Positions 1,715-62,930 of a DNA stretch of 64,000 nt are shown piece after piece. The stretch is from Ginglymostoma cirratum. Taxonomy: Eukaryota. The notes under the pieces were generated by a model that ran no database searches, was not told where the DNA came from, and worked only from the letters and a program-made list of their open reading frames with translations. The stretch lies in assembly GCA_024137785.1 (NCBI GenBank), contig JAHRHZ010000111.1:9538530-9602529 (forward strand), written 5' to 3'. The translations under genes and the position numbers were made by a program. Within the stretch, counting starts at the first letter, position 1; every line of letters starts with the position of its first letter.

Positions 1715-1863
1715 GAGATAGTAGGAACTGCTGATGCTGGAGAATCTGAGATAACAAGGTGTAGAGCTGGATGAACACAGCAGGTCAAGCAGCATCAGAG
1801 GAGCAGGAAGGCTGACGTTTCGGGCCTAGACCCTTCTTCAGCCTTCCTGCTCCTCTCATGCTG
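1715..1863 (-). mobile_element. PLE-terminus mini-element (family A) with hammerhead motif and fold-back arm
   Basis: Minus strand CTGAAGA-AGGGTCTAGGCCC-GAAACGTC at 1841-1814, with 25-bp inverted arms. Confidence 0.8.
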
Positions 1864-2509
1864 GTCAACGGCTGAGGCTCCTTTAGGACCACCCCCTTGT
1901 CCCTGACCACTGTCCAAATTTGAGGTAGTTGGTCTAGGGGGTGTGACTACCTCCTGAAACACAGCATCTAGGTAATTCACCTTCCCTGATGAGTGACAAT
2001 GTTCAAAGCTCAGGCTCCAGCTTGTCATCTCTGAGCCAGAGTTCCTCAAGCAACCAACACTTGCTACAGAATTTATCACTATGAACCACAATAGGGGCTG
2101 CCAACCCCTACGTCATGCAATTACAACAGATAGCCTGACTTTGATTCTCTATTTTAACTACTTTGTTCTTAATTTTGAGGTTTAAAATTTCATACTGGTC
2201 TTTTAGTTTGTAGCCTATAAATATTTCCCCTGTTTACCTTCAGTCTGAAAGTAATCGATAATATATAGTCAAATTAGTAGCTTTCACCAATCAATGAAGT
2301 TATTGGTTTATCTGTGATGTCACTCTTTTGTGCTGGGCTCCTGACCCTGGATTTCAATTTATCCTGTGAAAAAAATTACAAACTATGAGCCAAAAAAATG
2401 CAAGCAAAAAGCACCTCATTTCCCTATGCACCGAATTCCCACATTGTCTTCAAATTCCCAAACTGTATACTCACTTGGGCTGTGTTTCACTCTGGATTTG
2501 ATCTGTCCT

Positions 2510-3870
2510 TCCTGAATGTGTGAAGTTTACTGATCATACAGTATTTATATGGCTAGTCCAGTTCAGTTTCCGATCAATGGTAACACCAGGATGTTTATAC
2601 TGGGTGTTTCAGCAATAGTAGTACCATTTAATGTCAAGGGGAAATGGTCAAATTCTCTCTTGTTGGGAGTTGTCATTCCTTGGCACTTATGTGGCATGAA
2701 TATTACCTGCCACTTCACAGCCCAAGCCTGAATATTGTTCAGATGATGCTGCATTTGGACAATGATTTCTTCAATATCTGAGGAGTTATGAATAGTGCCG
2801 AACGTTGTGCTGTCATTGGTGAATATTCCCACTTCTGACCCTTAGGATGGAGCTGAAAATGATTTGGCATGGAACACTACTCTGAGGGCCCTTATGACAC
2901 AATGGTAGTGTACCTCCCTTGGAGCCAGGAGACCTAGGTTCAAATCCCAATTGCTCAAGAAGTGTGTAATAACATCTCTGAACAGGTTAATTAGGAAAAA
3001 TATAGCCTGGGGAACAGCTAGGACGCCTGCGGAACAGGAGTGGTACCCCAGCTCTGAGTCAGAAGAGCCAGGTTTAAGATCTATTTGCTCCACAAGTGTT
3101 TATGAACATCCTTGAACAATTTGATTAGAAAATATTTAATAAGCTGGTTAGGAATGTAAGACGCAACAAAAAGCAGTTTGATGACACAAATCAAATAATT
3201 ACCCTGAGGAACTAAGACTCTTATGGTGCAGTGGTAGTGTCCCAACCTCTGAGCTGGGTTCATGTCCCACCTTCTCCATTCGTGTGTAACATCATCTTTG
3301 AAAGGGTCAACTAGAAAATAATTTACCCTGATTTCCAGGACTAAAATTAATGATTTTTAACAATCATCTTCCTTTGTGCTAGGTTTTGAGTCCAACCAGT
3401 TGAACGTTTTACTCTGATTCTCATATATGTTGGTTTTGCTAGAATTCCTTAATGCCCAAGTGCAGTATTTCTTACCTCACTTCTCAACTTCAGCTCTTTT
3501 GCCAATGTTTGGACCAAGGCTATGATGAAGTCAGGAATTGAGAAGCCCTGGCCAAACCCAAACTCAACATCAGGTAATCACTGCGTAAATGCCACTGAAT
3601 GGTACTGTTATGACAAAAACCATCATTTTTCCTATTATTGAGTAGTCTGATAGAGCAGTAATTGGCTGGCTTGGATTTGTCTTGTTTTGTAGACCAGGCA
3701 TACCTGGGCGATTTTTTTTAACATTGCCAGGGAGATGTCAGTGTTATGACCGTACTGGAACAGCTTGGCGAGGGGAACAGCAAGTTCTGGAGCACAACTT
3801 TCTGGTACTGCTGCCAGATTGTTCTCAGGGTCCGTAGCCTTCAAAGTATCTGGTATCTTCAGCCGTTTCT
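2510..3870 (-). mobile_element. CR1/L2-group LINE RT remnant interrupted by three tRNA-like SINEs (2887-3320)
   Basis: PESCAPELAVPLAKLFQY..IAQVCLV and LNNIQAWAVKWQVIFMPHKCQ. Related fragments at 5925-6190, 51000-52400 and 60390-60950. Confidence 0.75.
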
Positions 3871-4029
3871 TGATATTATGTGGTTTGATTTTGTTTGCTA
3901 GTGTTCCCGTGGCTTTTTTTTTTCGATGCTTTACTGCTTTAAACGTACTGTATAAATGCAGGCTGTTTATGAAACCGGGCAGCCAAGTTGTGCAAAGCAA
4001 GATACCATAAGCAGCAATGAAAAGGCTAG

Positions 4030-4620
4030 GCGGATGATGAAGGAAAGTGGGCGACAGGGCGACTTATAGGACACTGCAAATATGCGTAGCAAACGCCAGC
4101 ATAAACTGGCTGGACAGGAAAACCGGTTTCTCCGTTAATCTTTTGAAAAAAAGACCCTAGCATATTTGGAACAGTGCATTGAAATCTAAGCTGCAGACTT
4201 GGGTCGCAGTTAGTTCCCTAAACAGTTGCTACGTACAGCCGTGTAATGGGGGCAGTCCCACACTCAGCCCAAGTAACGTTCAAATCTCATGAGATGTAGG
4301 GTTTGTGGGAAGGAGTTGTTCTGTCCTTGTTTTGATCGGATCAGCTGATTTTCTGCCTTGTTCTTGTCTCCCTTACGGTAGGATGGTTACCTGCTTGACA
4401 GATCTTTTCTGAATCTCATAGACCTTCGGCTCGCAGTTGACCAGGCAAGTTACAAAGGGGAGGGCGGGCGTCCGTGTGCCCGCTTTTGATTTTATTAATG
4501 TTTCTACTCGGTTTCTCTTTTCCGGCGCGGGGTTGGGGACAGAGCTACAGAAACTCGGAACCTGTGGTACTGGGCCAGAGACAAGGAGGCCTCGTCATTT
4601 TTATTCGGACCCATGACAAC
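4030..4620 (+). promoter_or_regulatory. CpG-enriched, TE-free segment; likely PSEN2 promoter and non-coding first exon
   Basis: Local CpG excess, GC box GGGAGGGCGGGCG near 4458-4470, about 2.3 kb upstream of the ATG exon. The TSS cannot be determined from sequence. Confidence 0.55.
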
Positions 4621-6870: not shown

Positions 6871-23163
<16,293 letters not shown>

Positions 23164-38769: not shown

Positions 38770-38890
38770 GAGATAGTAGGAACTGCCGTTGCTGGAGAAT
38801 CAAGGTGTACAGCTGGATGAACACAGCAGGCCAAGCAGCATCAGAGGAGCAGGAAAAGCTGACGTTTCAGGTCTGGACCCTCTTCAGAAA
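38770..38890 (-). mobile_element. Family A PLE mini-element with intact hammerhead core
   Basis: Minus strand CTGAAGA-GGGTCCAGACCT-GAAACGTC at 38887-38861. Confidence 0.8.
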
Positions 38891-39379
38891 ATATAGGTAG
38901 GGTCTTAAACAATATAAAACACCCCGAGGCACTTCGCAGAAGACTCATGCTAAATGTGAAACCTAGCCACATAAGGAGATATGTCTTGCTGCTCAGGTCA
39001 GATGACCAAATGTTTTGTCAAAAAGGTACATCTTATGGAGAATGTTAAAGGAGGAAAATTCAGCAAACCCATTTTGGCTCTTGCTGAATTTTAAAGGAGG
39101 AAAGTGATGGAAAAAGACAAGGAGATGAAGGGAGGAAATTGATATTGTTCTTGGTGCTGAGCACCAATAGCTAGAGTGATGGAATGCAAGTCAGTGAACA
39201 TATCCAGCTGACAATGAGTGTACTGGATTTGGCGTTGAATGGCAGCCACCAACCTGTCAATGCAGGCAGCCAGATGCTTGTGTGCCAGAGGCAGCAATGG
39301 TATGGATATAAAACTGGAGTTCTGAAGAAGTCATGCCAGACTTGAAAGAATAATTCTATTTCTCTGCAGAGATGGATAA

Positions 39380-39930
39380 CACAGTGGCTCAGTGGTTAGT
39401 ACTGTTGCTTCACCCAGGTTCAATTCCAACCATTCTCCACCCATAAGGCAATCAACAAACACATTGAATTGGACCCCGTATACAAACCCATACAGATCAA
39501 AACTGGAAATGACACTACTCACCATAACGGACCAAACAGTAAAAATTCCAAGCGGAGTAGAAGAACACCGCTTCATCGGAGGCTCCACCTAGCATGGTGA
39601 CAAAACGTCTGAACGAGAACAAGCTAGCTCAGCGAGCAAGTCAACAACCTCAATTCCAACTTCAGGTGACTGTGTGGAGTTTGCATGTTCTCAAGGTGTC
39701 TGCATTGGTTTCCATGAGGTAATCCCACAGTCCAAAGATGTGCATGTTAGATGGATTGGCCATGCTAAATTACTCTGTAGTGTCCAGGGATGTGCAGGCT
39801 AGGTGGATTAGCCATGGTAAATGCTGAGTTATGGGGATAGGGTGGGGGCTGTGTCAGGGTGGGTGGTCTTCTGAAGGTCAGTGCACATTGATGGGCTAAA
39901 TGCCCTCTTTCCGCACTATAGGGATTCTGT
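39380..39930 (+). mobile_element. HE1-like SINE interrupted by a PLE 3' fragment (39431-39649)
   Basis: A-box gtggctcagtgg and B-box ggttcaattcc. TSD TCAATTCCAAC at 39420 and 39650. Confidence 0.8.
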
Positions 39931-40860: not shown

Positions 40861-41589
40861 TCACACACAGGAAACTGACTGACAGCATGGACAAACAGGA
40901 GGCTGGAAGAATACAGTAGGTCAGGCAGCATCTGGAGGAAAGGAGCGATATTTCTCTGGTAACACCCTTCTTAAGGACTGGATGTGGGGGTAGGGCGAGC
41001 TGCAGATAAAGATGGGGGGGGGGTGGAGGGTTGGAGGCAGAATGGTGGTGATAGGTGGACACTGGTGGTAGGTACGACCTGGTTGATCAATGGGAGGGAT
41101 GAATCCGGTTGGTGGCCGGAAGGGAGGGTCAGAAGGTGGAATGGAAGGGAGTGCTAGATCTGGTTCCCAGCTGCGTATTAAAAATGGCAATGGTGCCAGG
41201 AATTCTACAGGTTCCTGGCAGTGGTGAGGACTTCCAACACTGGTGAGTGCCTGATAGCAGTAGCAGGCACCATAGATGTAATGTGCATACATAATGAGGT
41301 GAGTGGCACAGAATTGCAAGAGATAACTGACTAGAACTTATAGAGAAACAGCTCTTCATGAAAATCCCTGAAACTGACAATTAATCATGGTTCTGAGTTT
41401 ATTGATGTTACTGTAATTATGTACATATATAGACAGCTGATTGGCTTAACAAATTACACTGACTTTGTTACACACAGAGTGACTGCAGGTGTGGCAGGTA
41501 CCGTTAAATCAAAACGTCACACAATTCAATGTCATGTAACTCTCTTAACACTACCGTGCCTATGTCCTCTAGAATCTATGCTGTAATAC

Positions 41590-43170
41590 AACAGTTTGTA
41601 TGCAGGTACGCAAGTAAGTAGGAAAGCTAATAGATTGTTATAATTTATTGCATGGGGATTTGAATCAAAATTAGGGAGGTTATGCTTCAGTTATACCATA
41701 TCTGGAGTACCGTGTTTCCGTGTTGGTCGCCTTAGTTAAAGAAGGATGTAAATGCATTCAGAGAAAATTTACTATACTAATGTCTGAAATAGGTGGGTTA
41801 TTTTGTGAGGAAAGGTCGGACAGGTGAGGCTTGTATCCACTGGATACACTTGGATCCACTGATTCGTGATCATTACACGAGCAAAGTTAGAAGAAACACA
41901 TCACCTTATTAACAGCACATTCACTGGAATCAAGTTCACTGGGGAAGAAGAGAACAGTCAACTTCCGTTTCTAGATGTAAGGATGGGACGAACAATGGTG
42001 AATTCCTTACCGGTGTATACAGAAAGACTGCACACACAGACCAAATCCTGAATTGCAACAGTAACCACCCCAGCATCCACAAACACATCTGTGTCAAGAC
42101 TCTGTTTAAATGAGTGATAACACACTGCAATACCCCGGAGCTGCGCAAAGATGATGGGGACACCTATACAAAGTCTTTATGAACAACGGGTATCCTAAAA
42201 GCTTTGACTGCCGATGCCTGGCAAGTAAACAACACCAAAAAGACGCTGTACGCCCCAACTCACTGGCCACACTACCCTATGTTAGAAACACATCAGAACT
42301 GTCTACAAGATTCCTACAACCTCTTGGAATAATGATAGCATACAAACCAACAGCCACACTTTGACAGTTACACTCAAAGACAAAAGACCCCATACCCACA
42401 ATGAGCAGGTCAGATGTGATATACAAAATACCACGCAGCAACTGCAAGAAACACTACATGGGACAGACCAGGATACATGAACACCAACTCGCAGCAAAAC
42501 GGCATGACCAACTCTGCCCCATTTCAATACACTCTGACATAAAAGGATATCAGTTTAACTGGGACAAAGTAACAGTACTTGGATAAGCAAAACAAAGACA
42601 TGCACGAGAATTCCTGGACATGTGGTTTTCAACTACCAGTGTGATAAGCAAACATGTTGAGTTAGACTCCATCTACATACTAATATGGTGCAAAATCAGA
42701 AGCAGGGCTACCCACCATGACAGATTGGACCATATAAATTCAGACCAGGAGAGAACAACAACACTTCAACAGAAGCTAGACAGTACTGAAGATGTTACCT
42801 AGAAGGGAGACAAAATGTTTGCACGAAAACCAGTCAGCTCAACGATCAGCCAACAACTCCTGTATCCACTGGAGTTCAAAAGAATAGGAGATCACATGTT
42901 TGGAACATATAAAATCCCGAAGGATCTTTACAGGGTGCATGTGAAAAGAATATTTCATCTTCTGGAAGAACCTAGACATAGGAATCACTGTTTCAAAATC
43001 AGGGCTTGCCGATTTAACACCAAAGTAAAGAGTTTTTTTCTCATGGATAGACAGATAGATTCTTGCGAAGCAAAGGGATGAAAGGTTCTTGTGGGTAGAC
43101 AGGAATGTGGCGTAATCAGATCAGCCATGACCAAATGAGGCCTAGTGGCCTATCCCTGCTCCTTATTCAT
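41590..43170 (+). mobile_element. CR1 3' fragment split by a nested Penelope element
   Basis: CR1 RT C-terminal sequence resumes exactly after 42873. Confidence 0.8.
41845..42860 (+). mobile_element. 5'-truncated Penelope-like retroelement (RT, GIY-YIG and hammerhead-like terminus), 13-bp TSD
   Basis: IKFTGEEENSQLPFLDV, NGYPK, LPYV and DVIYKIP..CKKHYMGQT.RIHEH. TGTATCCACTGGA at 41832 and 42861. Confidence 0.9.
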
Positions 43171-43394: not shown

Positions 43395-44900
43395 ACAGAC
43401 ATCTCTACAAAGGGGAGATGAAATGCAGACTGGGTGACTGCTTTGCAGAACACCTATGTTCTGTTTGCAAAACTGACCCCCAGTTTCCAGTTGCCTTCCA
43501 CTTCAACACACCACCAAGATCCCCGGTCAACATTTCTGTTGCAGGCTTGACGAGTGAACCTCAGTGCAATCTTGAAAACAACATCTCATGTTTCGTTCGG
43601 GGACCTTGCAGCTTCTAGAACTCAATATTGAATTTAGAGCCTGATTCCATCCTTCCATTTTTTTTTATCCACCCTAAACCTGGTTCTATTATGACACGGG
43701 GTTGCTTTTAGCACAGTCACCCATTCACATGTACTCCTGGACCCATTATCACATTATATGGAACAAAAACGTAAATTACTGGAAAAGCTCAGCAGGTCTG
43801 GAAGCATCTGAGGACAGAAAGCAGAGTTAACATTTCAGGTCCAGTAACCCTTTTTCAGAAGTGACTGTAGTTAGGAAAATGTTGGTATTTCTGCTGAAGA
43901 TGGGGCTGAGAGTGTGGGAAAGAGTAAATGATAGGTGGAGATCATTTCCACAGAGAGAGAACAACAGTTGTGCAGACAAAGGAATGGATACAGGTCAGCT
44001 TGTGAAAATCAAGAGCTGCTAATGGGGACCATTAATAGCTGAGAAAGGGTAGTTGCAGTAGTAGCTCATGTGATGACAAAACCTGGTGAGTGGGGTTTGG
44101 GGTAAGAACATAGGAGATGGTGATCAGACTCTAATATTATTGAACTCGATATTGAGTATTTGAATCATAGAATCATGCAGTGCAGATGAGGCCCTTCATC
44201 CCACTGAGTTTTCACTGATACATGAGAAACACCTGACCTTCAATCTAATCCCATTTACCAGCACTTGGCCCATAGCCTTGATGTTGATGCCCACCCAGGT
44301 AGTTTTAAAGGATGTGAAACAATTCGTCTCTACTGCCGATCTGCACAATGCATTCCAGACTGCCACCACCTTCTGGGTAAAAACCTTTTCCTTGCAATTC
44401 CCCTAAACCTCCTGCTTGAACCTACTTACAGGAAGCAGGATCTGTAGTCAACTGTCGGAGTCAGGAGTTTGTCTTAGATATTGGTGGCCAGCCTATCCCC
44501 AGAAAAGAGATGCCAGGGAAGGGAAAGGAGGAGTTAGAAATTGACCATGTGACTGTCAGAGCAAAGTAGAAATTGGAAGCGAACTTGATAAACTTTTTCA
44601 ATTCCGGATGAAAGAGAGAAGTAGCACCCATGATGTCATTGATATACTGGAAAAAGAGTTTTGGGTGGGGATTGAATAGGACTGGAACAAGGAATTTTCC
44701 ATGTACTCCACAAAGCGACAGTATAACTTTGATCTGAAGAAAATGAGATGAGTTGAATGAGAAGTTGTTCAAAGTGAGGACTAGCCCAACCAGGTGGAGG
44801 AGGATGATGGTGGATGGGGATTGTTCAGGCCTTTTTTTTCCCCAGAAAGTAACAGAAAGCCCTAAGACCATCTAAATGGAGAATGGACATGTAAAGGGAT
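43395..44900. mobile_element. Rearranged Penelope-like element remnants (GIY-YIG on +, terminus and RT on -) with a CR1 piece at about 44165-44410
   Basis: RLGDCFAEHL..PVAFHFN and LVLTLNNFSFNSSHFLQ..FQYINDI. Confidence 0.8.
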
Positions 44901-44904
44901 TGCA

Positions 44905-46545
44905 GATTTTTTGAGGAGATGACCAGATGTGTTGATGAGGGTAGTGCAATAGATGTAGTTTACATGGATTTCAGCAAAGCCTTTGGCAAGGTCCCACATA
45001 GGAGACTTATCAAGAAGCAAATGTACATGGGATACAGAGTAATTTGATAAAGTGGATTCAAAATCAGCTCAATTGTAGGAGACGGAGGGTGATGATAGAA
45101 AGCTGCTTTAATGACTGGAAACCAGTGAGCAGTAGCGTACCACAAAGATCCGTCTGGGTCCCCTATTATTTGTGATTCACATAAATAACATAGATGACTG
45201 TGTGTGGTTTGAATTAGGAAGTTGGCGGATGACTCAAAGATTGGTCAGGTGGTTAACAGTGAAGTTGAGCATCTTGGGCTACAAAAAGATATAAACGTGA
45301 TGGTCAATTAGGCAGATAAGTGGCAGATAGAATGTAATCCTGAACAGGACAAGGTGGTTGTGAAGATACAATGGCCTTAAGAGGTGCATTTTGTCCTGGT
45401 TTTTTTATGAAGAACAGTTGAGGCAGATGTGCCAAGTGGTCTGCTCAAAACCAATAAAGGAAACAGCTTGTGAGGCCTTTGGTTTTTTTTTCAAAGTTGG
45501 AACAATAGAAGCAGCCTGAGTGGGTGAGGCCAAGCTCCCACAGAATCAGGATTTTCAGTTCTAGCTTTCCACAGTCACTGGTGTCTTGAAGCTGGATGTA
45601 GAAGCTCTTATTCCTCTCTTTGTTAGAGCTAAAAGCTGGTTTCTGATGAAGGGTCTAGGCCCGAAACATCAAGCTTTCCTGCTCCTATGATGCTGCTTGG
45701 CCTGCTGTGTTCATCCAGCTCCACACCTTGTCATCTCGAATTCTCCAGCATCTGCAGTTCCTATTATTCTCTTTCTGCTGCTAGAATTGCATGTGAGACA
45801 ATCTAGTTTACTAATTTGCCTTTGCTAAGGGTGTGTTAATGGGATGTTACTATATTTGTACAGTTAATTAATAGTAGTTAACATAAACATACATTATTTT
45901 GTTAAGCATTTCGATACAGGCACAGTTAAGCCAATTCTTTTCTTTTTATTTTGTCTGTTTTTTAATTGTAGTGTAAAAATAAAGTGTTTTGCTTAAAGTT
46001 GAGTGGTTTCACTAATCAAATTATATCTGGAATGCACCGCCTTTCACTTGACTATAAAATTAGAAAAAGTTAAGGTCAAGACTATCTTATTAATGTATTT
46101 TGAGGGGGTTTGGTCTGGTCCATAACAATGATACACTTTAGAAGGAGTAATTTGACAAGGAAGTATTCAATGAATTGCATGATACCAGGAAGTCCTATTG
46201 AGCAAAGGGACCTTGGAGTGTTTGTCCATAGATCTCTGAACGCTGAAGGGCATATTAGTAGGGTGGTGAAAAAGCCACTTTCCCCTATCAATCGAGGCAT
46301 AGATTACAAAAGCAGTGAAGTCATTTTGCAATTCCATAGAACTTTGGTGAAACCATAGCGAGAGTACTGTGTGCAGCTCTGGTCGCCACATTAGAAGATG
46401 GATGTGATTGCACTAAAGTGGTTGCACAGCAGATTCACCAGGAAGCTGCCTGGGATGGAAAATTTAAAGTTATGAGGAAAGATTTGGGTTGTTTTCTTCG
46501 TATCAAAGAAGACTGAAGGGCAATCTGATTGATTCATCTGTCTGC
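44905..46545 (+). mobile_element. CR1 RT fragment interrupted by a solo LTR
   Basis: VVYMDFSKAFGKVPH, then EYCVQLWSPH after the insertion. Confidence 0.8.
45359..46127 (+). mobile_element. Probable solo LTR (TG...CA) with nested family A hammerhead element (45642-45772)
   Basis: TGTGAAG...CATAACA termini, internal AATAAA near 45978. CR1 sequence continues on both sides. Confidence 0.65.
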
Positions 46546-46614
46546 TCAGATCCTCCTTCAGCTCCCACTTTCCCAACTTCAGCTTCAGCAGAAATAACAC
46601 ATTTTCCTAGCTGC

Positions 46615-47200
46615 TAGCAGTTGTGATGAAGAGTCACCGGATTCAAAATATCAAACTCTACTTTCCTCACACAAATGCTCCCAGACCTGCTGGAGGAACA
46701 ACATCTCATCTTCCGACTAGACACTTCACAGCCTTCTGGACTTGATATTGAGTTCATCACCTTCAAATTGTGAACCAACTCCCATTTCTAAAGAAGGGTC
46801 TGGACCCGAAACGTCAGCTTTCCTGCTCCACTGATGCTGCCTGGCCTGCTGCGTTCCTCCAGCTCCACACTGTGTTATTCCATTTCTTCCCTTTCTTTTA
46901 GCTTTATTTGTTACATTCTCTGTCACTATGTCATCTATCCCCTCCCCCCATCACTATGGGACTGTCTTCTCTTTCAAGTCTGGCAGCTAGACACGCCATT
47001 CTCACATTCCGATCACTTATTGTGAACAATCAACATCTTTTCTCCCCCAGCACTCTACACCCACCACCGCCACCACACCGCAACTCTCGCATAAATGCCA
47101 CCCCCTCCACATTTCACTTCAGTTCTGATGGAGTCATATAAACTCGAAACGCTAGCTTGCCATCTGACTCGCTGTGATCTCCAGCATTTGTTGTTTTCAT
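46615..47200 (+). mobile_element. PLE 3' region with three successive hammerhead-like units
   Basis: EEQHLIFRL remnant. Degenerate cores near 46623, 46788 and 47125. Confidence 0.7.
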
Positions 47201-48391
47201 TATAAATTAGGCAGGCAGGTTTGTGATCACCAATCTGTTTAAAAAGAGTTTTCTTTAACCGTAATTGTTTAAAAAACACAGGTAGAATGTATCTAGATTT
47301 GCTGGTGGTACAAGACTAAGTTGGAAACTAAACTGTAATGAGGACACAAAGAATTTAGGATTTAGACAAGCCAAGTGAATGGGCAATAACATGGCAGATG
47401 GAGTATAATATGGAAAAATTGTGAAGTTATCCACTTTGATAAGGAAAATAGAAAGCAAAATACTTTTGAATTAGTGAGTATGGCAAATGATACTCAGAGT
47501 CACCTAGATATCCTTGTATACAAATTACAGAAAGTAAACAAGCAGGTATAACAGGTATTTAGTGATGCAAATTGAATGCAAGTTTTTTTTAAGGTATTAC
47601 AGGTATTTAGATTGCAAATGGTTATGAAACTGTATAATGATGCAATTGGAGTATAAAAGCTGTCTTGTCCACAAGATGTGAAGAGAGATCATGAATATGT
47701 TTTAAGGCTTTATTTGCTTGTATCAATTTTCCAATAAATTTTGCTGGACTTAAACAAGGCCACTGCCAATCGAGTCATGCAAATTGACCACAATTTCTGG
47801 AAGGATTCCAATCAGCAGATACTAATCAGAGGGTACTCTGACATTTTCCTCCTGGAATGTCACAATTATGCATGCATGGACCTTCAATTAAAAGCAAAAT
47901 ACTGCAGATGCTGGAAATCTGAAATAAAAATAGAAAATGCTTAAGAAACTCAGCAGATCTAGCAGGTCTGTGGAGAGAGAAAAACAGAGTTAACATTTTG
48001 AGTCCAAAGACTCTTATTTGGAATGTGGTGTAAAAGGACACTGGGCTTGCCTTTGCAAAAATCTGGTTCCAAAGCCACATCCAGAGTCTACAATATAATG
48101 TAACCAAACAAAGAGCATGCTGGTAGACTCAACAAGGTGTGTTGCAGAGACCTGCACAAATGGAAGTACACACTTGGGCTTCACAGCAAGACAGATCAGG
48201 GTGAAATTTCAGAGTGGAGGAAACTTCAACAAGGTGAATAGACTTTCCATGTTGCCAATATGAAACATTGTGTGGACAAAAAAAAAGAAAAAAAATAGAA
48301 AATAGAAACTTTTGCTCCTGTCAACATCGTCTGCCCATTGGTAAACACATGTTTGCTGTTCTGAGGAGAGCAGCTCAATGACTCCAGACTC

Positions 48392-48600
48392 TAAAACAAA
48401 ACAGAGAGTGTTGAAGAAACACAGCAGGTCTGGCAGCATCTATAAAGGGAAAACAGAGTAAACATTCATGAAAGGTCACTGGACCTGAAATATGAACTCT
48501 GTTTTTCTCTCTACAGATGCTGCCAGACCTGTTGTACTCTCCAGCACTCTCCGTTTTTGTTTCAGATTTCCAGCATCCACAATTGCGTGTTTATTTTGTC
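48392..48600. mobile_element. Family B inverted pair (hairpin)
   Basis: cagcaggtctggcagcatct and agatgctgccagacctgttg arms, with CAGACTCT on both flanks. Confidence 0.75.
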
Positions 48601-49977
48601 TTCAGACTCTTCTCTGTGTCCTGCTCCTTATTGATATGGACTACTCCAAGTAGAGACAGAATATGTGCTGACATGTAACTTTATATCGAACAGAATAAAG
48701 TGGAGGTACTTAAAAATTTGACAGAATTCAAAGAAGAAAAGTCACCTGGACCAGATGGAATATATTCTAGGTTGCTGATGGAAGCCAGAAAAGAAATTAC
48801 AGAAGCTCTGGTCTAATTATTCCAAGCCCCCTGAAAATGAAAGTCTGAGAGCTGGGGCATTGCAAAATTTATGCCTTTGTTCGAAAACACAGGAGAGTGA
48901 ACAACTTGGTAATACAGGACCAATCAGTCTAATCTTTTTTGGAGGGATTGTGTAGAGAAATTCCTCTGGGGCAAAATAATTTGGCACTTGGATAAATATC
49001 AGATAATAAATGAAAGTTTCACAAATTTGTCCAAGGCAAGTTGTTTGATTGACTTGGTCAAGTTGTTCAATGAAGTAATGGAGAGTGTGGATAAGGGCAG
49101 TGCAGTTAATGCTGTATACATGGACTTTCAATCTGACACGATGTGGAATGCACTACCTGAAAGGTGGTGGAAATCAATTCAGTAATAAATATAAAAAGAA
49201 AATTGGATTACAACTTGAAAAATAATCACTTTGCTTTGGGGGAAATGTCAGGGAGGATGATGTCTCAGGGCAATGAGCCAAATTGCCTCCTTCTGTCCAG
49301 TTTCACTCTATTAAACTAACAGATCAAAAGGTAATTGACAGGGTCAAATAAGGATCAGCACTAAGTTCATTACTACAGCTTTTAGTATATTAGCAGTATT
49401 AGTTTATTATAAAATATTGTTAGTAATGACTATTAACAAACTCCTTTGAACTGTGTAAGCTCATGAACAGGTTTCTATTGATTCATGCTGTGTAGTACAA
49501 TCTGGTACAGCAGTATCCTCTGGCTCTGTTCAGGGCTTCTAGAAAGCTATTGGAATGTGTCCAGAATATTGTGAGCATGCTGCAGACTTAGATGACATCT
49601 CACTGTTTTAAGTCAGACTGTATTCATTAATCAGCACTGTTCATTACCAATCAATCTGTAAAAATCTGTGGAATCTCTGCAACAGCTACTGAAATTGAAT
49701 CCAACAGTCATATTTATACCTATGATTTTCTCCGACCTGAACAAAAACTAAATTCTCTGATAAAAATGGTAACACATTTTACTTAAGTCTGAAATCATGA
49801 AAAATGACAGGCATGAAACTGATCCCTCGCCCTGTGCCATACAGTTGCAGTGCTAAATGTATTGAAAAAAAAGCTTGGGAGTGACCTGATGGAGATGTTT
49901 AAGATTATGGAAGTGTTTTCCAATGTGGACCATAGGGAAGAACTTTACACCAAATACCTGATTGAAAAGTTTATTGG

Positions 49978-50335
49978 AGTGGCACAGTGGCTCAGAGTTT
50001 AGTACTGCTGCCTCACAGCGCTGGGGACCTGGGTTCAGTTTCACCCTTGGGGGACTGTCTATATGGAGTTTGCACATTTTCCATGCGTCTGCATGGGTTA
50101 CCTCTGGGTGCTCCGGTTTCCTCCCAAGCTCCAAAGATGTGCAAGTTAGGTGGATTGGCCATGTTAAATTGCCTATAGCGTCCAGGGATGTGCAGGTTAG
50201 GTGGGTTAACCATGGGAACTGCAGGGTTACAGGGACAGAGTGGGCGGTTGGTCTGTGTGGGATGCTCTTTGGAGGTTTGGTGTGGACTTGATGGGACAAA
50301 TGGCCTGCTTCCATACTGTAGGGATTCTGTGATTC
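49978..50335 (+). mobile_element. HE1-like SINE, full length
   Basis: tRNA head, gtttgcacatt..ccaaagatgtgc core, CR1-like tail gggattctgtgattcta. Confidence 0.85.
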
Positions 50336-50464
50336 TACACTTGTGTGTGAAAGCAAAATTAGAGACTATAAATATGCATATAGTTGCTGATAAATTGGAC
50401 AGGGAACTCAGCAGAAATATTTTTACACTGTTGTTAGAGTGTGAAACTTGCATGTTTTTTTATC

Positions 50465-50785
50465 ATAGAATCTCTACAATGTGGAAACAGGCCCTTCGGC
50501 CCAATGAGTCCACACCGACCTGCAGAGCATCCCACCCAGACCCATCCCTGTAAAACACACCTAACTTACACAACCCTGAACACTATGGGCAACTTAGCAT
50601 GGCCAATCCACCCAGCCTGCACATCTTTGGAGTGTGGGAGGAAACCAGAGCACTCGGAGGAAACCAACGCAGACACAGGGAGAAAGTGCAAACTCCACAA
50701 TGACAGTCAACCGAGGGTGGGATTGAACCTGGGTTCCTGGCGCTGTGAGGCAGCAGTGCAAACCACTGAGTTACCGTGCCGCCCT
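50465..50785 (-). mobile_element. HE1-like SINE, full length, tail-to-tail with the previous copy
   Basis: Reverse complement of the same family. Confidence 0.85.
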
Positions 50786-50999
50786 AATTGAGATGATAGA
50801 ATAAATACATTTTAATACAGCTTAGATAAAGAGTTTAGAGGGATATGGGCCAAATGCTGGCAAATGGGATTAGATTAATGTAGAATATCTGGTCGGCATG
50901 GATGAGTTGGACCAAAGGGTCTGTTTCCATGCAGAACATCCCTATGATTCTATGACTCTATAATATAATGTTCTATAGAATGCAAGACTTTTTTTCCTA

Positions 51000-52459: not shown

Positions 52460-52830
52460 CTAGCAGCTTTATAAAATCATGAGGTATATAGATAAATTGG
52501 ATAGCAAAGGTTGTTTACCTATGTTTAGGGAGCTCAAAACCAGACAGCATAATTTTAAGATGAGAGGAGAAACATTTAAAAGGGATCTTAAGGGCAGTTT
52601 TTTCACCCAGTGGGTGGTTTGTATGGAGAATGAACTGACAGAGGAAATGGTGGATGCAGGTGCAGTTACAACATTCAAAAGACATTTGGATAGTTACATG
52701 AATTGGAAAGGTTAAGAGGAATATGGGCCAAATGCAGATAAATGGGACTAGTTTCATTTGGAAGTTTGGTTGGCATGGACAAGTTGGACCGAAGGGTCTG
52801 TTTCCATGCTGTATGACTCTGACTCATGGA
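52460..52830 (+). mobile_element. CR1 3' fragment
   Basis: FKRDLKGSFFTQWVV..TTFKRHLD, with a tatgactctgact tail. Confidence 0.85.
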
Positions 52831-53611: not shown

Positions 53612-53686
53612 GGGCCAGTTAGTTCAGTTAATTAGAGCATGATGTTTAATAATAGCAACTGTGTGGGTTCAGTCCCCCTACTAAGT
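53612..53686 (+). pseudogene. Degenerate tRNA-Ile(AAT)-like sequence (pseudogene or SINE head)
   Basis: ggccagttagttcagttaattagagcatgatgtttaataa...gggttcagtcccc is collinear with tRNA-Ile, but the stems are broken. Confidence 0.5.
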
Positions 53687-54992: not shown

Positions 54993-55879
54993 GCCTCGAT
55001 TTTCATTTCGTGGGGACAAAGAGCAGTCTGAAGCCAGCGCAGAAACTAAACTAGATGCATTGCTTTTCCATGCATGAAATGAACAGACTTGTTTGCAAAT
55101 AACTCAAGGAGAAAAATCTTTCTTGTTTTAATATATCAATGACAAAACTGTATGGAATTACTTTATATTATATTTTGCATGGGATATTGACTTGCTAACC
55201 TCTTGTTAAATACTGGACTTAAAACATTGGCTCTGTTTCTGTCTGCATAGATGCTGCTGAACCTGCTGAGTTTCTCCAGCATTTTTTGTGTTTGTTTCAA
55301 ATTTCCAGCATCCTCAGTATTTTGCTTTTATTTGTTAAACGCTAGTTCTTAGCTTCAGTCCGTCCCTTAATGACAGAGCTTGTACATTGAATCTATTAAT
55401 GCGGTTGTGGGTTGGTTGATTGATCCCTGATTTATTTGAGCAATAGGCAGGAAAAATACTGCAAGGTCCAGTTCAGAAAATGAGCAGTGAATCCTTGAGA
55501 ATCCTACTTTTAGATGTTTAACTAATGGTATGACATACCTCTGGAGCAGGTGGGACTCGAGTATGGGCATTCTGGCCCAGAGGTAGACACTACTGCTGTA
55601 GCACAGTGCTGAATTTGTAGAATATTTCTTCAATACACAGCAATAATTTCTGTGCACTGTATTTAGCACCACTAATATGCTAAAGAAATATAAATGCACG
55701 TTTTTTTTTCTTTTACTTAACCCTACTCATCTATTCACACGCTCAGTGTTTCATATCTCTTTCTCTTCATTCTGCTTCATGCTTACAATTCAGTTGCTAT
55801 CTGATCTTCACTTGCTCTTTACCGAGTCCATTGTTTGTTTTCCTGCGTCGTTGGTCTCCTTTTCTCTCCAAACTGTTTT

Positions 55880-56219: not shown

Positions 56220-56541
56220 ATGAATTGTCCGGGTGGCCGAGGCAGAAAGAAGAAGGGTCCGGCGCGAGTATCGCCCGACGGCACCAGCGACAGACTCTCT
56301 CTCCACAAGCGGAACCTTTACTACTTTGCGTATCCTCTGGTCGCCGTTTTCAGCTTCCTGCGCTTCCTGGCCTTCCACCTTTGGCTCTTTTTCGCCTACG
56401 TCTGCCAGCGCCTGGCCGCGATGGCATCGCGCAAGACAGCCCCGGCCGTCACTACGGCCGAACCCGAGCAGATCCGCCAGTCCCACAAACTCGCATTCGA
56501 CTACATCTCCACTGCTCTCAAAATCGACGAGGACGACAAAG
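56220..56541 (+). CDS. SPAST: Spastin exon 1 (M1 isoform N-terminus, hydrophobic hairpin, start of MIT domain)
   Basis: MNCPGGRGRKK..LHKRNLYYFAYPL..HKLAFDYISTALKIDEDDK, then donor G|gtaagc. Confidence 0.96.
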
Positions 56542-59452
56542 GTAAGCAAGGTTCTCCGCAGTTAAAGCGGGCTGGTCGGGGGAGGGCTTTTGTTGGACAG
56601 TTGCAGGGGTTGTTGGGTCAGCACCCTGCCCCTTTGACCCAGGTGAGAAACCAACTGATAGTGTTTATTTGCAATGTTAGTGTGCATCACATTGTAACTG
56701 TCTGGCATTGTAATATAATTGGAATGTTTTATAATAGATTCTGTACTAGAATATTAAATTTGTGATTCATTGTGACATTATTGTGCAGCGAGTATTATAT
56801 TTATAGTTCACATTGTAATGTAGTGTTATTGCAGTACGTCTCGCATTGTGTATATTACCATGTTTTGATGTTGTAGAGGAACGTGATACTTTTCGCAGTA
56901 CGTTGTAATGTATTTCTTGCCTTACTGTCATGATGTAGCACTATATTGAATGCCTCTGTCATGTGATGTTGCATGATAATGTGCATGCTTTACTATGTTA
57001 CATGGTGCTGCTTTGAAATGTGCTTGCATTGATCTGTGTGCTACACTATAATGTAGTGTAAGCCTTACAGCATCACAGAACAAGGCACCAAGTGAAAGCA
57101 TGTGTACGACTGTTCTCAAGGAAAGTGACCCTCCATGAGGAGCCAGTGAGTTCTGAGATGCTGACTTCCCTTATTACAATGTCCAAGAACAGCAAGCTGA
57201 GTAGTCAATCAGATTGGAAAAATTCTCAGAGCAAAGCCAAAAACAAAAAGGTGGTTTGCTTTTTAACAATTTTGCAACAAATTAGATAAAGATTAGGACA
57301 TACATGCAGGATTAAAGTAGAAACTGAACAATCATTAAAAGATATTTTGTAAACATTTTAAAAAAAAAAAATCATCGTGGTAAAGAGCAAATGACACTTC
57401 AAAATTCTAAAACTATTTTTTTTTCAGCACCGAGTTTATGCAGTAACATTTATGACTCAGTACAAGTTAGCAGCACAGTGACGTTTCCTGCAACAAGATT
57501 CTGTGATTTGACAGTTCAGTGGGCATTATGGTGAGAATGGTACCTGTAGTGTACAGAATCTGTCAGATGACAGAATCAAAATTAGGGTTCATTTCCAGTT
57601 TTCATTGTCTCATCATAAGCTAGGGTAGAACAAAAGTCTCCAAATATCTGGCGCATATTTGCCTAGTTTTTCAAAGCAAAGGAGGAAAATGAGGATGAGA
57701 TGCTGAAAACTGGAGTTTAAGTTGGTGGACTGAGAGACTTTGTACACTACAGCTGCTGGTCTGTATTGTTCAGCACATTTAATTAGACACTGCATGGAGT
57801 AAATTCCTACATTAAAATAGAGCGAGAACTTTAAAAGACAGTAAGTTCTTGTTTAAAATTGATTGCATTGCTGGAAATTGCGGCTTTAGGTGTAACATTG
57901 AGTTAGATTCTATAAAATCTTCAGGAAAAAACACTAACGTTATGCTCTGCAGGTTGAAATACTTTACATTGCTAGATTTTTGCATTTGTAAATAACTTCT
58001 CACGTATTTTTCAAAAATTTTTTTCTTATAATACCTCCTCTCGCTGCTAATCACGCTTCTCAAACCTCTTGGTTAGCGCTGTTTCTTCACTTACCTGAGC
58101 CTCTAATGTGCCCCATCCTGCCTAAATTCCTGTTTGAGACCTAGCTGACAATAGAGTTCTGATTTTTTTGTTTTTTTTTTTAAATGCTCCAGCTTGTCTT
58201 TTCCCATTCCTGAACATTTTCTGTGCCTGTGGCTTCTAGAGATGAGTGGCTCTTACAAGAGACTGGAAGATCAGCTTCAACAATCACTTGAAATAAAACA
58301 TGGATTATACCAGCCCCAACCTGGCACATCTGCACCACCGTGGCCTGTAATTTTGCTTTTGCTTTGGATTGAATCTAGCTCTTGAATAAAAAGGCACATT
58401 CAGGAGACTGAAGCAGTGAGAGGTGGGGTCAGGAAGGGGGAAAAGCCACAAATCAAGAGTTGGGCAATGAGAGAGGCTGCACGTCAGCGGCTTGGAGAGA
58501 GAGCATCCTAATATTGAAGGATCAGACATAGAGATTGACCCCATGTTGCAGGATTGGGGAGTGGGTACAGACCACGAGTTGCAGAGTTTGAGTCTAAGAA
58601 GCTACTCCAAATTGGAGCCAATTGGTGTCTCGGAATTCACTGTGACCTCGAATCTCATGATACTCAGCAAACTTGTTGCCCCCATTAACTTAGCTTTATT
58701 TTGGTTCAGCATTGAGAAATGGGGCAGCATTAAACAAGGAATTACTGTATTTATTAGATGTAAATATGTCAGCATATCCTGAGGTTGTTTAAAACTGTAG
58801 CTGTTAACATGTTGACTTGTGCTCCAGATGCAAAAATGGATAATGGAGCCTACTGACTTTCTGTGCCTCAGCTTTGAAACCTTTGTTTTGTGTCTCAGAG
58901 CAATGGTTTAAATGTCTCCACCTAGTAAGCTGACAAAACCTAATGAAAGCTGGTAAGGTTTGAATTGAAATTTTGTCTGTGTGCAGCTCATGACATGATG
59001 TAAATGGACAAGCACTGTATTGTAATTATTGGGCAGTGTTTAATCCTTAACGAATGCCAGAAACAGATGACCTGCTCAGCTTTCACATTTCTGTACATGG
59101 GACCCCATTGTGTAACTTGGTGCTAAATTCCCAGCAATGCAGTAGAATCTGTGCTTCAAAAGTACTTGATTAGCTTCACAGTAATTTAGGATATCTTCAG
59201 TTTGTGAGAGGAGCTGTAGCAATCGATGTCCTTCTCTTATCCATATCTTGTATGTTAACTATGTACATGACTACTGTAATTGGTAAGTGAAGGAGCAGAA
59301 CTAACCAAAGATGATAACGAAATTGATGTTAGTTTACCTCCATTTTCCAACTGGTATAGTACCAGGGTAATTTTGCTGGAACTTGGACTATGCCGCAGTT
59401 TGGTTTTATATTAAACCCTATGCTTTCTGTTACAAGTTCTTATTCCACATTT

Positions 59453-59593
59453 TAAAAACCAAAAGAACTGCGGATGCTGTAAATCAGCAACAAAAACAAA
59501 GTTGCTGGAAAAGCTCAGCAGGTCTAGCAGCATCTGTGAAGGGAAAAACAGTTAACGTTTCAGGTCTGGTGACCCTTCCTCAGAACTTCCTTG
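59453..59593 (-). mobile_element. Family B PLE mini-element with complete minimal hammerhead, 10-bp TSD
   Basis: Minus strand AGTT-CTGAGGA-AGGGTCACCAGACCT-GAAACGTT-AACT. TTCCACATTT at 59443 and 59594. Confidence 0.85.
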
Positions 59594-61111
59594 TTCCACA
59601 TTTAGGATTTTTTTCATCAACCTGTTCAAACATGTTGTGTTGCACACATCTGGAGCAGGTGGGGCTTGCACCCAAACGTTCTGGCCCAGAAGTAAACCCA
59701 TTATCACTGTGCCACAAGAGTCCTTTTATTTCATGTTTATTATGAAAACATTTTCTGTAAATTTCTAATGTAGCGGCATATCCCTGTCAGTTCCACATTA
59801 TTTTGGAAAATGCATTTAGAGCATCAGGCATTCACAAAAGTATTTCCTTATTACAGTTGTCATAAGAATCTATAATAGCAGTGGGGAATTTTTTTTACAT
59901 GAAGACGAGTGGATACTGAGGTAGTAGCATGTTGCTTGCTTTGAGAAAAATAGTTGAAAAATTGAATTAGTTTTTTGTTGGAACAATTGTCGTATGATGG
60001 AAATATTTAAAATTGAGAGAATGGATAGGCTTGATAGCAGATTATTTCAAATAGTTGAGAGAATGATATATTTAGAAAGCAGGAATAATGTCTTCAGGCA
60101 GATTTGAAAGGCTTTGTGGTTGCCTTTGAGAATGTATAATTGAGACACACACTTTTAATGTTGAGCCGTAGAACAAAGGGAAATGAAGGAAAATGGATTT
60201 TGAGGCATGTGGGGATAGCGTGTAGCTATAGTTTTAGAATGATTTGCTTTTCAAAAGCAATGGACTGGCGGGTCCAGATTACATCTGAGTGGACCTGTCT
60301 AGTTATCCCTTGCCATCTACTCTCACTTCGTTTCAACACAATTCTGCTCTAGACTTTCCACATCTCCAAGATCGTAGGCAGGTATGTGATTAAGGAGAGA
60401 ATGCCAGGATTTTGACTCAGTGACAGTGAAGGAATGGTGATTTATATTTCCAAGTCAGGATGGTGAGTAGTTTGGAGGGAGACTTGGTGTTTTGGAGATG
60501 TTCCCATATATCTGCTGTCTTTTTCCTTCCAGATGGAAGTGCTTATGAGTTTGGAAAGTTCTGTGTAAGTTTCTTTGAATTTCTGCATTACATCTTGTCG
60601 ATGTAAACACTGTTGGTGGAGTGACTGAATGTTGTGCCAATCAAGCAGGATGCTTTGGCCTGGATGATGTCAAGCTTTTTGGTGTCCTTGGAGTTGCACT
60701 TATCCAGGCAAATGGGAAGTTTTCCATCATTATTCTGACTTGTGCCTTGTAGATGACAGACAGGCTTTGGGGACTTGGGTGGTGAGTCATTCACTGCAAC
60801 ATTTCCAGCCTCTGACCTGCTCTAGTAGCCACTGTAGTTATATGGTGGGTCCAGTTGAGTTTCTCTTCATTGATCACCCCCATGATGTTGATGTTTCTGT
60901 TTCAATGATGGTAACATCTTTGAATCTCAAGGGGTAGTGATTAGATTCTCTTATTCTTCCACCATCAGTCACACAGTAGCTACCAATGTACAACATCTGG
61001 AAGCTGTACTGCAGCAATGAGCCAATACTCCTTCAACAGCCCCTTATAAGTTGCAAACCATTCTTACATAAAAATATATTGTTACTTAATTATCCCAGAT
61101 CCTTCTGTTGC

Positions 61112-61691
61112 TGTTGACCGTGGCCGAGGCAATTACCCATGGCCGCATATTATTATGTTATAAAATGGAGAACTGCTGATTGAATGGGAGGCATTGTGGG
61201 ACCTGATCAATTTGATCACATTCCTGTAATTATTCAGTTACTGCAGCCACAGACCTTAAGTTTACTCATGAGGGCTTGCCGTTTCAGTGCACAGGCAACC
61301 ACATTGAGTAAATGACTGCTAGAAGAAACAAGCCAGGCATGTGGCTGAGGTAAGGAAATTCTGAGCACAATATTCATTGTGAAGGCACAGGGACAATTGA
61401 CAAGATGTCTGGTAAATATCGTGATGTAGCATTGTCCACAAGCTGATCATGCAGCCACGTGATACCTGATTATTAACTTGATTGGACATATATGTAATCA
61501 GTTAATACTGTGCTTGGTTTGGCTAAAGCCAGGATGGGCTAAAATAGAAGATGTGTACAATTTCCTTTATTCAATGGAGAAGCGCATAGTGAGCCCAGTG
61601 ACTTGCTCCCCACCAGTGTGAAATAAACCATTTGATGATTGAAATGGACCTGGGTGCTGAGTGATCTCTTTTTAGCAAGAATGACTTAACA
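61112..61691 (+). mobile_element. Possible solo LTR inserted in a LINE tail
   Basis: TGTTGA...TTAACA termini, AATAAA at 61622. Flanks are LINE 3' sequence. Confidence 0.45.
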
Positions 61692-62319
61692 CTTTCAAAT
61701 CCTGGAACTTCCTACTTAATGGTAATGTGCAACCCCTGTCACCAAATGGACTGAGGCAGTTTTGAGACGGCAGTTAACCATAACTTTCTCAAGGATAAAT
61801 AGGAATGGGAAATTAATGATGACACTTCTAGTGATCTGCACGTTCCATGAGCAAATTTTAGAGTTATTCACCTGAAGACAGCATTTTGCCTTGACTCTGT
61901 GTACATGTTCCTAGGACTTTGACCAGCATGTGGTCTAATGAATTGAAGCTAATTCCATTTGGACTTCATGTTCAGAGCTGTAGTCATAATACAGGATGGA
62001 ATGTTGAGAGGCTTGGCTGCCTGCGACTACTCCATTTGTAAAGTTCTCATGTTTTGAACACTGTCCTATGTTGCTACGTCACTCATTTTACGAATGAGAA
62101 GAGGGATGTAGATCAAAAATGTTAAAAGTCACATACAAATATATAATCTCAAGTGACTTGAAGATTGGCTGTGGTCCTTTTTTGCCTTCCCTCCAGCGTT
62201 GTTTACATCTTGACATTTTATGCTTTCTTGCCAGTAATTTTTTTTTTGTGCATAACATCAAGCATCACAGGCCACATACAGCAACACAACAGTGTTCCTG
62301 TTAACTTATATACATCTTG

Positions 62320-62550
62320 TGGAGGTGCTGGTATTGGATTGGGGTGGACAAAGTCAGTAGTTGTACAACACCAAATTATAGTCCATCATGTTTATTTGAA
62401 GGCACGAGTTTTTGGAGCACTGCTCCTATATCAGGTGAAGTCAACATGGCCAGTCAAGACTTCACTTGACAAAGGAGCAGTGCTCAGAAAGCTTGTGACT
62501 TCAAATAAACCTGTTGAACTATAACTTACATAGTGTCATGTGACTGACTA
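62320..62550. mobile_element. Family C PLE terminal units in inverted arrangement
   Basis: Stem II ggagcagtgctc(c/a) units on both strands, each followed by aaataaac(c/a)tg(t/a)tg(a/g)actataa. Confidence 0.7.
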
Positions 62551-62830
62551 TATCAACCTGAAAGCTATAAATATACTTCTGTTTTCTTTTGAGTTATGTA
62601 TCCATCGTACTTTTTAGTCATACTTTTCATATCTCCAGACCAACACACTTTCTCTGAGATGCTCTTGAGAGTAAGAAGCGGAAATTGGCATAAATGGAGG
62701 GACCCAAGTCTCGTGGGCTGATTGATGAGGCGCTGTGGAAGTTTGCTGTTCAGGTTTCCTGTCCACTTGTGTGGACTCTTAGATTGGATCAGCCTTCGCT
62801 TTAAAGTGCGTAAATGGCTGCATCGAGTTT

Positions 62831-62930
62831 TCTGATGAAGGGTTTAGGCCCGAAACGTCGAGTTTTCCTGCTCCTATGATGCTGCTTGACCTGCTGTGTT
62901 CATCCAGCCTCATGCTTGTTATCTCTATGT
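62831..62930 (+). mobile_element. Family A 100-bp element with intact hammerhead core, 12-bp TSD
   Basis: CTGATGA-AGGGTTTAGGCCC-GAAACGTC at 62832-62859. TGCATCGAGTTT at 62819 and 62931. Confidence 0.85.

Follow-up and report, generated by a model that had tools for sequence, protein, structure and literature searches.

Minimal hammerhead ribozymes in the terminal repeats (pLTRs) of metazoan Penelope-like elements (PLEs) were described by Cervera and de la Pena (2014, PMC4209133). Short repeats of the same class crowd the stretch analysed here, 64,000 nucleotides of the nurse shark Ginglymostoma cirratum genome (the window; assembly GCA_024137785.1, contig JAHRHZ010000111.1, positions 9,538,530 to 9,602,529, below C111). 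Common to both are a type I core without helix III, a palindromic ACGT/AGCT, one extra base ahead of stem II and many families per genome. The 2014 paper ascribed its mostly solo motifs, ~4,000 in coelacanth and ~9,000 in Xenopus, to truncated PLEs, and its accessible text holds no mapping of 5′ ends or promoters. The class of units has been known since then, and the window families are further members of it. Statements on this paper, on PMC8557442, PMC2377424 and PMC3846280, and on the retrozyme preprint refer throughout to the accessible portion of each source.

The canonical insertion unit of endonuclease-bearing (EN+) PLEs (Craig et al. 2021, PMC8557442) shares with the shark elements a reverse transcriptase (RT) followed by a GIY-YIG domain, a CxxxxCxxC linker, 5′ truncation, an adjacent inverted copy, an optional 30–40 nt tail and partial tandems; a fixed 5′ start, seen here in ~40% of family A copies, is not among its features. 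PAc Poseidon of Anolis (Frangieh et al. 2024, PMC11167929) likewise has two RT start sites giving the tail, a hammerhead near the start of the open reading frame (ORF) and an uncut RNA template. In that system both start sites are internal, both strands are primed, the ribozyme is dispensable and uncut RNA is the main substrate. The PAc ORF starts inside stem II, whereas that of family A starts ~166 nt after the core, and neither run-off copies nor an RNA start are described in the PAc study. Penelope of Drosophila virilis (Schostak et al. 2008, PMC2377424) resembles the shark elements in a transcription start inside the pLTR and in needing a partial tandem; its promoter is TATA-less and internal, whereas the shark PLE has a predicted TATA-like box upstream of the start. 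A putative TATA box and initiator have been noted in a rotifer pLTR (PMC3846280). Finally, non-LTR retrozymes (Li, Clavereau, Pollet 2026 preprint) are also non-coding, hammerhead-bearing and pLTR-derived, but by definition they form tandem arrays containing two or more complete ribozymes, whereas units in the window occur singly at dispersed places or as head-to-head pairs.

Here we show that the window units are pLTRs of at least five PLE families, and that many short copies share a sharply defined 5′ end just ahead of the ribozyme. These short copies are probably dead run-off products of an RT that started inside the repeat on an uncut transcript. Our literature search, which covered few subscription papers and neither Repbase nor Dfam, found no description of a hammerhead or a fixed start in a shark PLE; the families may be listed in the supplementary tables of Cervera and de la Pena or of the retrozyme preprint. 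The TATA/initiator match, the template-end marks and the genome-wide end counts were not in the papers found, and the added value is mechanistic.

Repeat units of the window and their PLE context

Positions within units are numbered from the hammerhead core, where the C of CTGA is 0. We ran a profile made from 16 window copies on the window and on 564 kb in three regions (533 kb readable), and counted exact words in the 4.36-Gb genome. Five of six randomly drawn 100-kb blocks were all N and were dropped; the sample consists of contigs C111, C1 and C9 plus loci selected by search, and the locus sets selected through RT are biased to long copies.

A repeat unit was present at every one of the 24 places listed in a preliminary description of this stretch (8 as intact, 16 as degenerate), which confirms the population it had proposed. 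The profile detected 26 segments in the window, none in a reversed-sequence control and 168 in the 564 kb. Families at 34791, 42786 and 62410/62465 were missed by the profile, and the window total is ~30 segments from ~23 insertions (Table 1). Five families (A–E) were found where at least four had been claimed. Density in three other readable regions was 18.6, 22.6 and 15.4 units per 64 kb, and the window is ordinary for this genome. A 28-letter family A word has 22,605 exact genome matches and a 17-letter family B word 32,264, far above the counts reported for coelacanth and Xenopus. The earlier statement that units begin at the core does not hold for all of them: at 8 of the 24 places, 3′ untranslated region (UTR) or ORF remains of a PLE lie upstream. 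Six short window copies are flanked by target duplications of 8–14 bp, and several others form head-to-head pairs.

The family A copy with core 45643 is 97–99% identical to its 40 best genomic matches. Among the 30 best, the first being the window copy itself, 16 extend upstream, by 38 to >1503 nt, and in 10 cases reach an ORF; 13 end at the core edge, two of these next to assembly gaps, and the remaining one belongs to a head-to-head pair. Natural open frames of the ORF match Pfam RVT_1 (7e-08) and GIY-YIG (3e-05), both above the curated cut-off; the window RT/GIY-YIG fragments taken alone gave no Pfam match, and a PDB sequence search with the RT part returned nothing significant. A unit lies downstream on the same strand for 25 of 28 ORF hits in the 564 kb. 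In family A loci L233, L229 and L224 a unit also precedes the ORF, in the order core, 130 nt, 5′UTR and ATG at about +166, and L249 holds a partial tandem. With a unit both behind and ahead of the RT–GIY-YIG ORF, the units are therefore pLTRs, and we hold their PLE origin to be close to certain. The earlier proposal of PLE-type minimal hammerheads moved by PLE RT/GIY-YIG machinery was correct.

Units are ~100–135 nt long, and their 3′ ends fall at two sites ~35 nt apart (+76 to +105 and +124 to +134), the PLE tail signature that was traced to two internal RT start sites in PMC11167929. Variable 5′ truncation, an adjacent inverted copy and a 30–40 nt tail, as in canonical PLE insertions, are all found. 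Family A translations carry an FPCNRRKCYTC linker between RT and EN (Zn-finger-like CX2-5CxxC, of the CxxxxCxxC type). This motif, tied to Neptune/Nematis in PMC8557442, would by itself place family A in the Neptune clade. The N-terminal part of the family A ORF contains a length-variable Ala/Thr/Pro/Asp-rich repeat region (L224, L229, L233, L236). Three extra tandem copies of a ~34-nt segment (+135 to +168) precede the ORF start at L245:1360-1545, recalling the 34-bp repeat of D. virilis Penelope.

The units carry a predicted minimal type-I hammerhead or its worn remains, with a CUGANGA and GAAA core, stem II, a short stem I (4–5 bp in family B, only ~3 bp in family A) and a palindromic 15.2–16.2. 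Eight cores had been described as intact or near-intact. Five of them (1841, 38887, 45643, 59583 and 62832) pass a strict descriptor (CTGANGA, stem of at least 4 bp, GAAA), for which 100 dinucleotide shuffles gave a mean of 0.33 and a maximum of 2; the other three (10904, 36729, 39322) have a broken stem or core, and core 45643 has lost the ACGT palindrome. Stems I and II are paired in 82% of cells across 21 distinct copies versus 13–52% when slid. Double changes affect six of nine stem pairs, equalled by 1 of 500 shuffles, in copies that are related and whose variation is mostly decay. The comparison with Rfam hammerhead models that had been suggested yielded no match to such a model in the window at E≤10, only chance hairpin matches, and single units fold with no better energy than shuffles. 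Family B units also contain two to three successive pyrimidine-tract/CAG words, resembling splice acceptors, 3′ of the ribozyme (window 36760-36850 and 48495-48580).

A fixed 5′ end ahead of the hammerhead

Exact genome-wide counts for family A fall from 22,605 (core) to 20,047 (with TTT, to −3), 13,434 (with CATTT, to −5) and 10,265 (with TCCCCCATTT, to −10). The count thus loses one-third across −4/−5. Long copies that have TTT keep CATTT in 100 of 103 cases, and the word to −10 is kept in 84 of 108 long copies. By these counts ~58% of young family A copies are long and ~42% short. We also mapped 5′ ends individually: 246 of 285 were kept, from mixed sampling, after leaving out 39 at an edge or gap, and 54 of the 246 lie at −5 to −2. 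In unselected blocks, 13 of 37 mapped ends fall at −9 to −1 and 10 at 0 to +9. Copy lengths combine a continuous tail with a sharp step at −4/−5 and do not form a smooth continuum. The fallback reading of the units as extreme 5′ truncations comes closer than a separate class but is incomplete, since the step gives the short copies a defined start, which is not the ribozyme cut site.

Exact counts across the ribozyme cut site change from 30,747 to 29,498 (4%, the level of mutation), and only 13 of the 246 mapped ends lie at +27 to +33. With no count step at +28, ribozyme cleavage is ruled out as the origin of the short copies; the fixed end is therefore not a cleavage product and the templates were uncut RNAs, which agrees with the preference for unprocessed RNA seen in vitro (PMC11167929). 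Cleaved RNA was rarely if ever the template.

In family B, 43 of 48 copies are short and identity fades at −3 to −5, with G kept at −3 in 34 and A at −4 in 21. Splicing at the CAG ahead of the family B core was considered and ruled out, since the short copies mostly keep that G (34/43) and share no common upstream exon. In family D, 26 of 30 copies end within −1 to −10, 14 of them at −6 to −10, and none ends between −11 and the four long ones; the outer limit thus follows the predicted start described below rather than stem I, though loosely.

An ordinary 5′ truncation hot spot could also produce a step, with RT falling off after unwinding the hammerhead, or with endonuclease or microhomology acting at ATT/TTT, and no RNA end involved. 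In families A and B the step does lie at the edge of stem I on its 5′ side, the ends of family D scatter from −1 to −10, heavy 5′ truncation is known for PLE copies (PMC8557442), and the Anolis enzyme prefers ATT near its own ORF–pLTR junction (PMC11167929). We nevertheless consider this explanation unlikely. A double ATTT word at −33 to −24 collects ~3 of the 246 ends versus 54 at −5 to −2, which argues against ATT-directed cutting or T-microhomology as the cause and disfavours either one alone. The family B pile-up is at AGTT, not ATT; the 14 outer family D ends lie beyond stem I; and family E has a hammerhead yet no end at −1 to −9. Moreover, folding of the monomer has no stability advantage over shuffles, and the stutter, extra G and reiteration reported below fit a template end.

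A predicted promoter at the step

The step falls on an initiator-like A, CC-A-TTTC in family A and TC-A-GTTC in family B. The consensus words for the initiator and the TATA box are YYANWYY and TATAWAW. Among 74 copies that follow an ORF end, a TATA-like word stands at −33 to −28 in 54 and an initiator with A at −4 in 64. After thinning to 11 diverse representatives, each is found in 5 of 11, and no TATA-like word occurs at −58 to −35 in any of the 11. Families C, D and E also have TATA-like words at this spacing, which give predicted starts at −4, −7 and about −18, and in family E a well-kept TATAAA at −48/−47 has 29 hits in 40 copies. A downstream promoter element (DPE) match at +28 to +32 was considered but is not claimed, being offset by 2 nt.

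A polyA raw-read run covers the unit deeply, mostly from copies inside host transcripts and without strand information. Loose read ends cluster at −3, mirroring the DNA, and no joint at the ribozyme cut site is listed in this run, which is unsuited to circles. Run X24 contributed 352 reads, mostly of one other subtype. On L249, ~270 reads from X24 belong to one diverged subtype and share their ends exactly; they may come from an amplicon or a single expressed locus.

Template-end marks, jumps and insertion marks

Family A was compared in a set of 193 copies (108 long, 85 short). A T-run of at least four occurs in 26/85 short versus 2/108 long copies, and an A precedes the T-run in 53 of 63 short ones. 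Genome-wide, G stands before ATTT 955 times versus 620 for A, though A is the commoner base; in the short copies G precedes the first A in 13 of 23 non-C cases, above background. The first 7 nt are directly reiterated in 48 exact copies, and inverted reiteration is also present. Extra Ts, an extra G and reiteration in the short family A copies are marks expected at a template end.

A word spanning the 3′ border of the repeat into the 5′UTR occurs 1,490 times in the genome. The first 30 such loci, two of which are one place, comprise one long partial tandem, nine mini-tandems, 14 with a second unit starting from −31 to −280, often with microhomology at the junction, and six of other kinds. In the nine mini-tandems, 5′UTR/ORF sequence ends at +163 to +501 and gives way immediately to a second unit, whose start is at −5 to −3. 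These junctions contain 5′UTR/ORF sequence, and the templates therefore included the 5′ end of the element. Recurrent junctions from about +237 to +271 to −55 to −91 were seen at L253, L254, L257, L258, L259, L262 and L270; retaining both the predicted TATA box and the region of the ORF start, these mini-tandems are the best candidates for true non-autonomous source elements.

Of 66 short segments, 24 have an inverted arm within 45 nt and 32 are simple; target duplications of 7–15 bp flank 15 of the 32 (control mean 2.1). An antisense RNA that ends or folds back and primes itself could give both fixed ends and head-to-head pairs, as proposed for rotifer PLE palindromes (PMC3846280), and the 24 segments with an inverted arm speak for it. 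The 32 simple segments, 15 with target duplications, do not fit, the sense-strand TATA and initiator spacing matches the step, and priming on both strands in vitro (PMC11167929) explains head-to-head pairs from sense RNA. We rate an antisense template as very improbable. Gaps of 400 N stand at the centre of head-to-head pairs at many loci (L031, L037/L038, L042), and counts of palindromic insertions need long-read data. At window 16927-17070 and at L057, the latter through 12-nt microhomology, an ORF end is fused to the hammerhead without a 3′UTR.

Tandem hammerhead units that self-cleave, circularise and reinsert, as in non-LTR retrozymes, are the least probable source of the short copies in our judgement. 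Arrays derived from pLTRs have been reported in vertebrates including one chondrichthyan (bioRxiv 10.64898/2026.07.22.740005), and mini-tandems do occur here. On C1 (2642195-2642301), three family B cores stand head-to-tail, 41 and 49 nt apart, possibly a small retrozyme-type tandem array. No hammerhead tandem array exists in the window, however; the rare mini-tandem junctions lie away from the cut site, where there is no count step, and paired units are mostly head-to-head and unable to form a tandem dimer.

Short copies and the question of a separate lineage

In the 193 family A copies, no variable column is private to the short ones; column frequencies differ between long and short copies because the long ones were partly fetched via one young subtype. 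Long and short copies occur together in 13 of 23 sequence types, among them the 7 commonest and all but one of the 12 commonest. The short copies of this sample do not appear to form a SINE-like (short interspersed element) lineage with diagnostic changes of its own, and a tree hints at weak clustering without a clade. The predicted TATA box lies upstream of the short copies and is lost in them, though they may carry an internal promoter element of the D. virilis kind.

A SINE-like non-autonomous class, in which short or TATA-keeping truncated copies are self-transcribed and amplified in trans by PLE protein, would suit the abundance of short copies with target duplications, which number hundreds of thousands. 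The predicted promoter is still present in more than half of the family A copies, from which RNA with the same start could be made; the short copies cluster slightly in the tree; and in rotifers captured DNA can be mobilised by nothing more than pLTR sequences (PMC3846280). We consider such a class improbable all the same, as the short copies lack the TATA box, the common subtypes hold both lengths, no variant column is private to short copies, and the jump products carry 5′UTR/ORF sequence to +163 to +501 that only the 5′ end of an element can supply. Some contribution from TATA-keeping truncated copies may be present. With no tandem array in the window, units that are PLE terminal repeats, and short copies without a lineage of their own, the independent SINE-like or retrozyme class that the preliminary description had proposed is not supported.

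Features of the window

Table 1. Hammerhead-bearing units and associated PLE remnants (window coordinates).
Position	Strand	Feature	Details
1715–1863	-	Family A (older subtype) short copy, core 1841	22-nt fold-back arm at 5′ end
10817–11001		Family B-type head-to-head pair	Unit 10817–10904 (-, worn core); inverted arm 10906–11001 (+)
16547–17200		Single inverted PLE insertion	Unit 16547–16643 (-), 3′UTR upstream, TATA-like word 16672–16679; GIY-YIG C-terminal remnant 16937–17053 (+) abutting second unit 17067–17200 (+)
18507–18659	-	Family A short copy without first core half	Unit 18521–18603; inverted tail arm 18603–18645; 14-bp target duplications 18507–18520, 18646–18659
31106–31230	+	Family B-type short copy	Worn core
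34740–35738		Inverted PLE insertion	Units 34791 (-) and 35614–35738 (+), each with 3′UTR upstream; arms 34817–34894/35513–35590 around RT remnants 34921–35365
36678–36872	+	Family B short copy, core 36729	Inverted arm 36690–36722; 10-bp target duplications 36678–36687, 36863–36872
37776–37939	+	Family A short copy 37800–37925	Core start lost; 14-bp target duplications 37776–37789, 37926–37939
38770–38891	-	Family A (older subtype) short copy, core 38887	Begins at T-run ahead of core
39318–39374	+	Family B-type short copy, core 39322	3′ part gone
40895–41150	-	Worn unit 40895–40975	3′UTR upstream; absent from the preliminary description
41890–42860	+	Family E truncated PLE	RT/GIY-YIG remnants; TATAAA 42733–42738; hammerhead from 42786
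43403–44953		Family B long copy	Unit 43757–43860 (-); 3′UTR to ~44157; RT remnants 44566–44953 (-); adjoining GIY-YIG remnant 43403–43640 (+)
45640–45767	+	Family A short copy, core 45643	Starts at TTT (−3)
46560–46692	+	Family B-type unit from 46623	~60 nt 3′UTR upstream
46689–47208	+	Family C truncated PLE	GIY-YIG end 46690–46770; 3′UTR; TATA-like CATAAAT 47090–47096; hammerhead from 47125
46782–46887	+	Family A-related short copy, core 46788	Inside family C 3′UTR; 8-bp duplication 46782–46789/46880–46887
47888–48023	-	Family B-type short copy	Worn core
48390–48595		Family B-type head-to-head pair	Joint ~48466
55205–55332	+	Family B-type short copy without first core half	
59443–59603	-	Family B short copy, core 59583	Intact core; 10-bp target duplications 59443–59452, 59594–59603
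62373–62527		Family D head-to-head pair	GGAGC/GCTCC stem; both arms begin ~7–8 nt ahead of worn core
62819–62942	+	Family A short copy, core 62832	12-bp target duplications 62819–62830, 62931–62942

Other dispersed repeats of the window are unrelated to the hammerhead units (39723-39878 and 50122-50276; 15723-15836, 50833-50947 and 52711-52824; 8-139 and 49973-50788). We take them to be V-SINE-like repeats and tails of CR1/L2-type long interspersed elements (LINEs).

Discussion

The short copies are best explained as run-off products. Transcription would begin 4 nt ahead of CUGA (7 nt ahead in family D), directed by an initiator and a TATA box ~30 nt upstream, and the RNA would then carry the repeat at each end, in the manner of the R region of retroviruses. 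RT primed at the target nick would start inside either repeat copy. From the 3′ copy it would yield variably truncated long copies, and from the 5′ copy a run-off cDNA of 100–135 nt with a fixed start, which would integrate without TATA box or promoter. Priming on both strands would give head-to-head pairs. A jump onward from the RNA end would give mini-tandems, and transfer through the repeat could rebuild a promoter-bearing pLTR.

Several observations weigh against this account. The start is predicted only: the unstranded polyA run lists no position where many molecules begin. The 5′ edge of stem I and the predicted start fall together in families A and B and are not separable there. Family D ends are spread, 12 of 26 lying at −1 to −5, and family E shows no pile-up, with 34 of 40 copies running beyond −55 and 6 ending scattered at −10 to −31. 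In 30 of 53 short copies the base before the A is C, which is more often than expected from a start at A. Short copies also cluster slightly: across a 135-unit tree, the long/short label changes 29 times versus 35.4 ± 2.4 in 300 shuffles, 4 of which were as low. The element size of 3.6 kb comes from the overlap of L233 and L207, not from one two-ended copy, and mirror-image arms at 400-N assembly gaps may have been counted twice. Lastly, D. virilis Penelope is TATA-less and has an intron 46 nt downstream of its start (PMC2377424).

A broader model goes further, and we offer it tentatively, as possible rather than probable. The pLTR would be laid out like a retroviral long terminal repeat (LTR), with a TATA-bearing U3-like part, then an R-like repeat whose first feature, at the capped end of the RNA, is the hammerhead, and then the 5′UTR. 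The short copies would then be integrated strong-stop-like cDNAs, and mini-tandems and partial tandems would record, as fossils, how the pLTR is regenerated by end-jump and repeat-mediated transfer. All of these products would derive from uncleaved RNA, with the ribozyme acting at another step, for example by removing the cap-bearing first ~30 nt to switch RNA use.

At ~20 units per 64 kb, these repeats would flood ribozyme screens of shark genomes, and Rfam profiles miss them. Tens of thousands of young copies per family make ends countable at single-base resolution and allow an exact prediction of the RNA start. Regeneration of the pLTR has been stated without an obvious mechanism (PMC2377424, Discussion), and the role of the hammerhead is described as unclear (PMC8557442). 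The fixed start just before the ribozyme likely marks the beginning of the RNA; if so, it would show how PLEs copy themselves.

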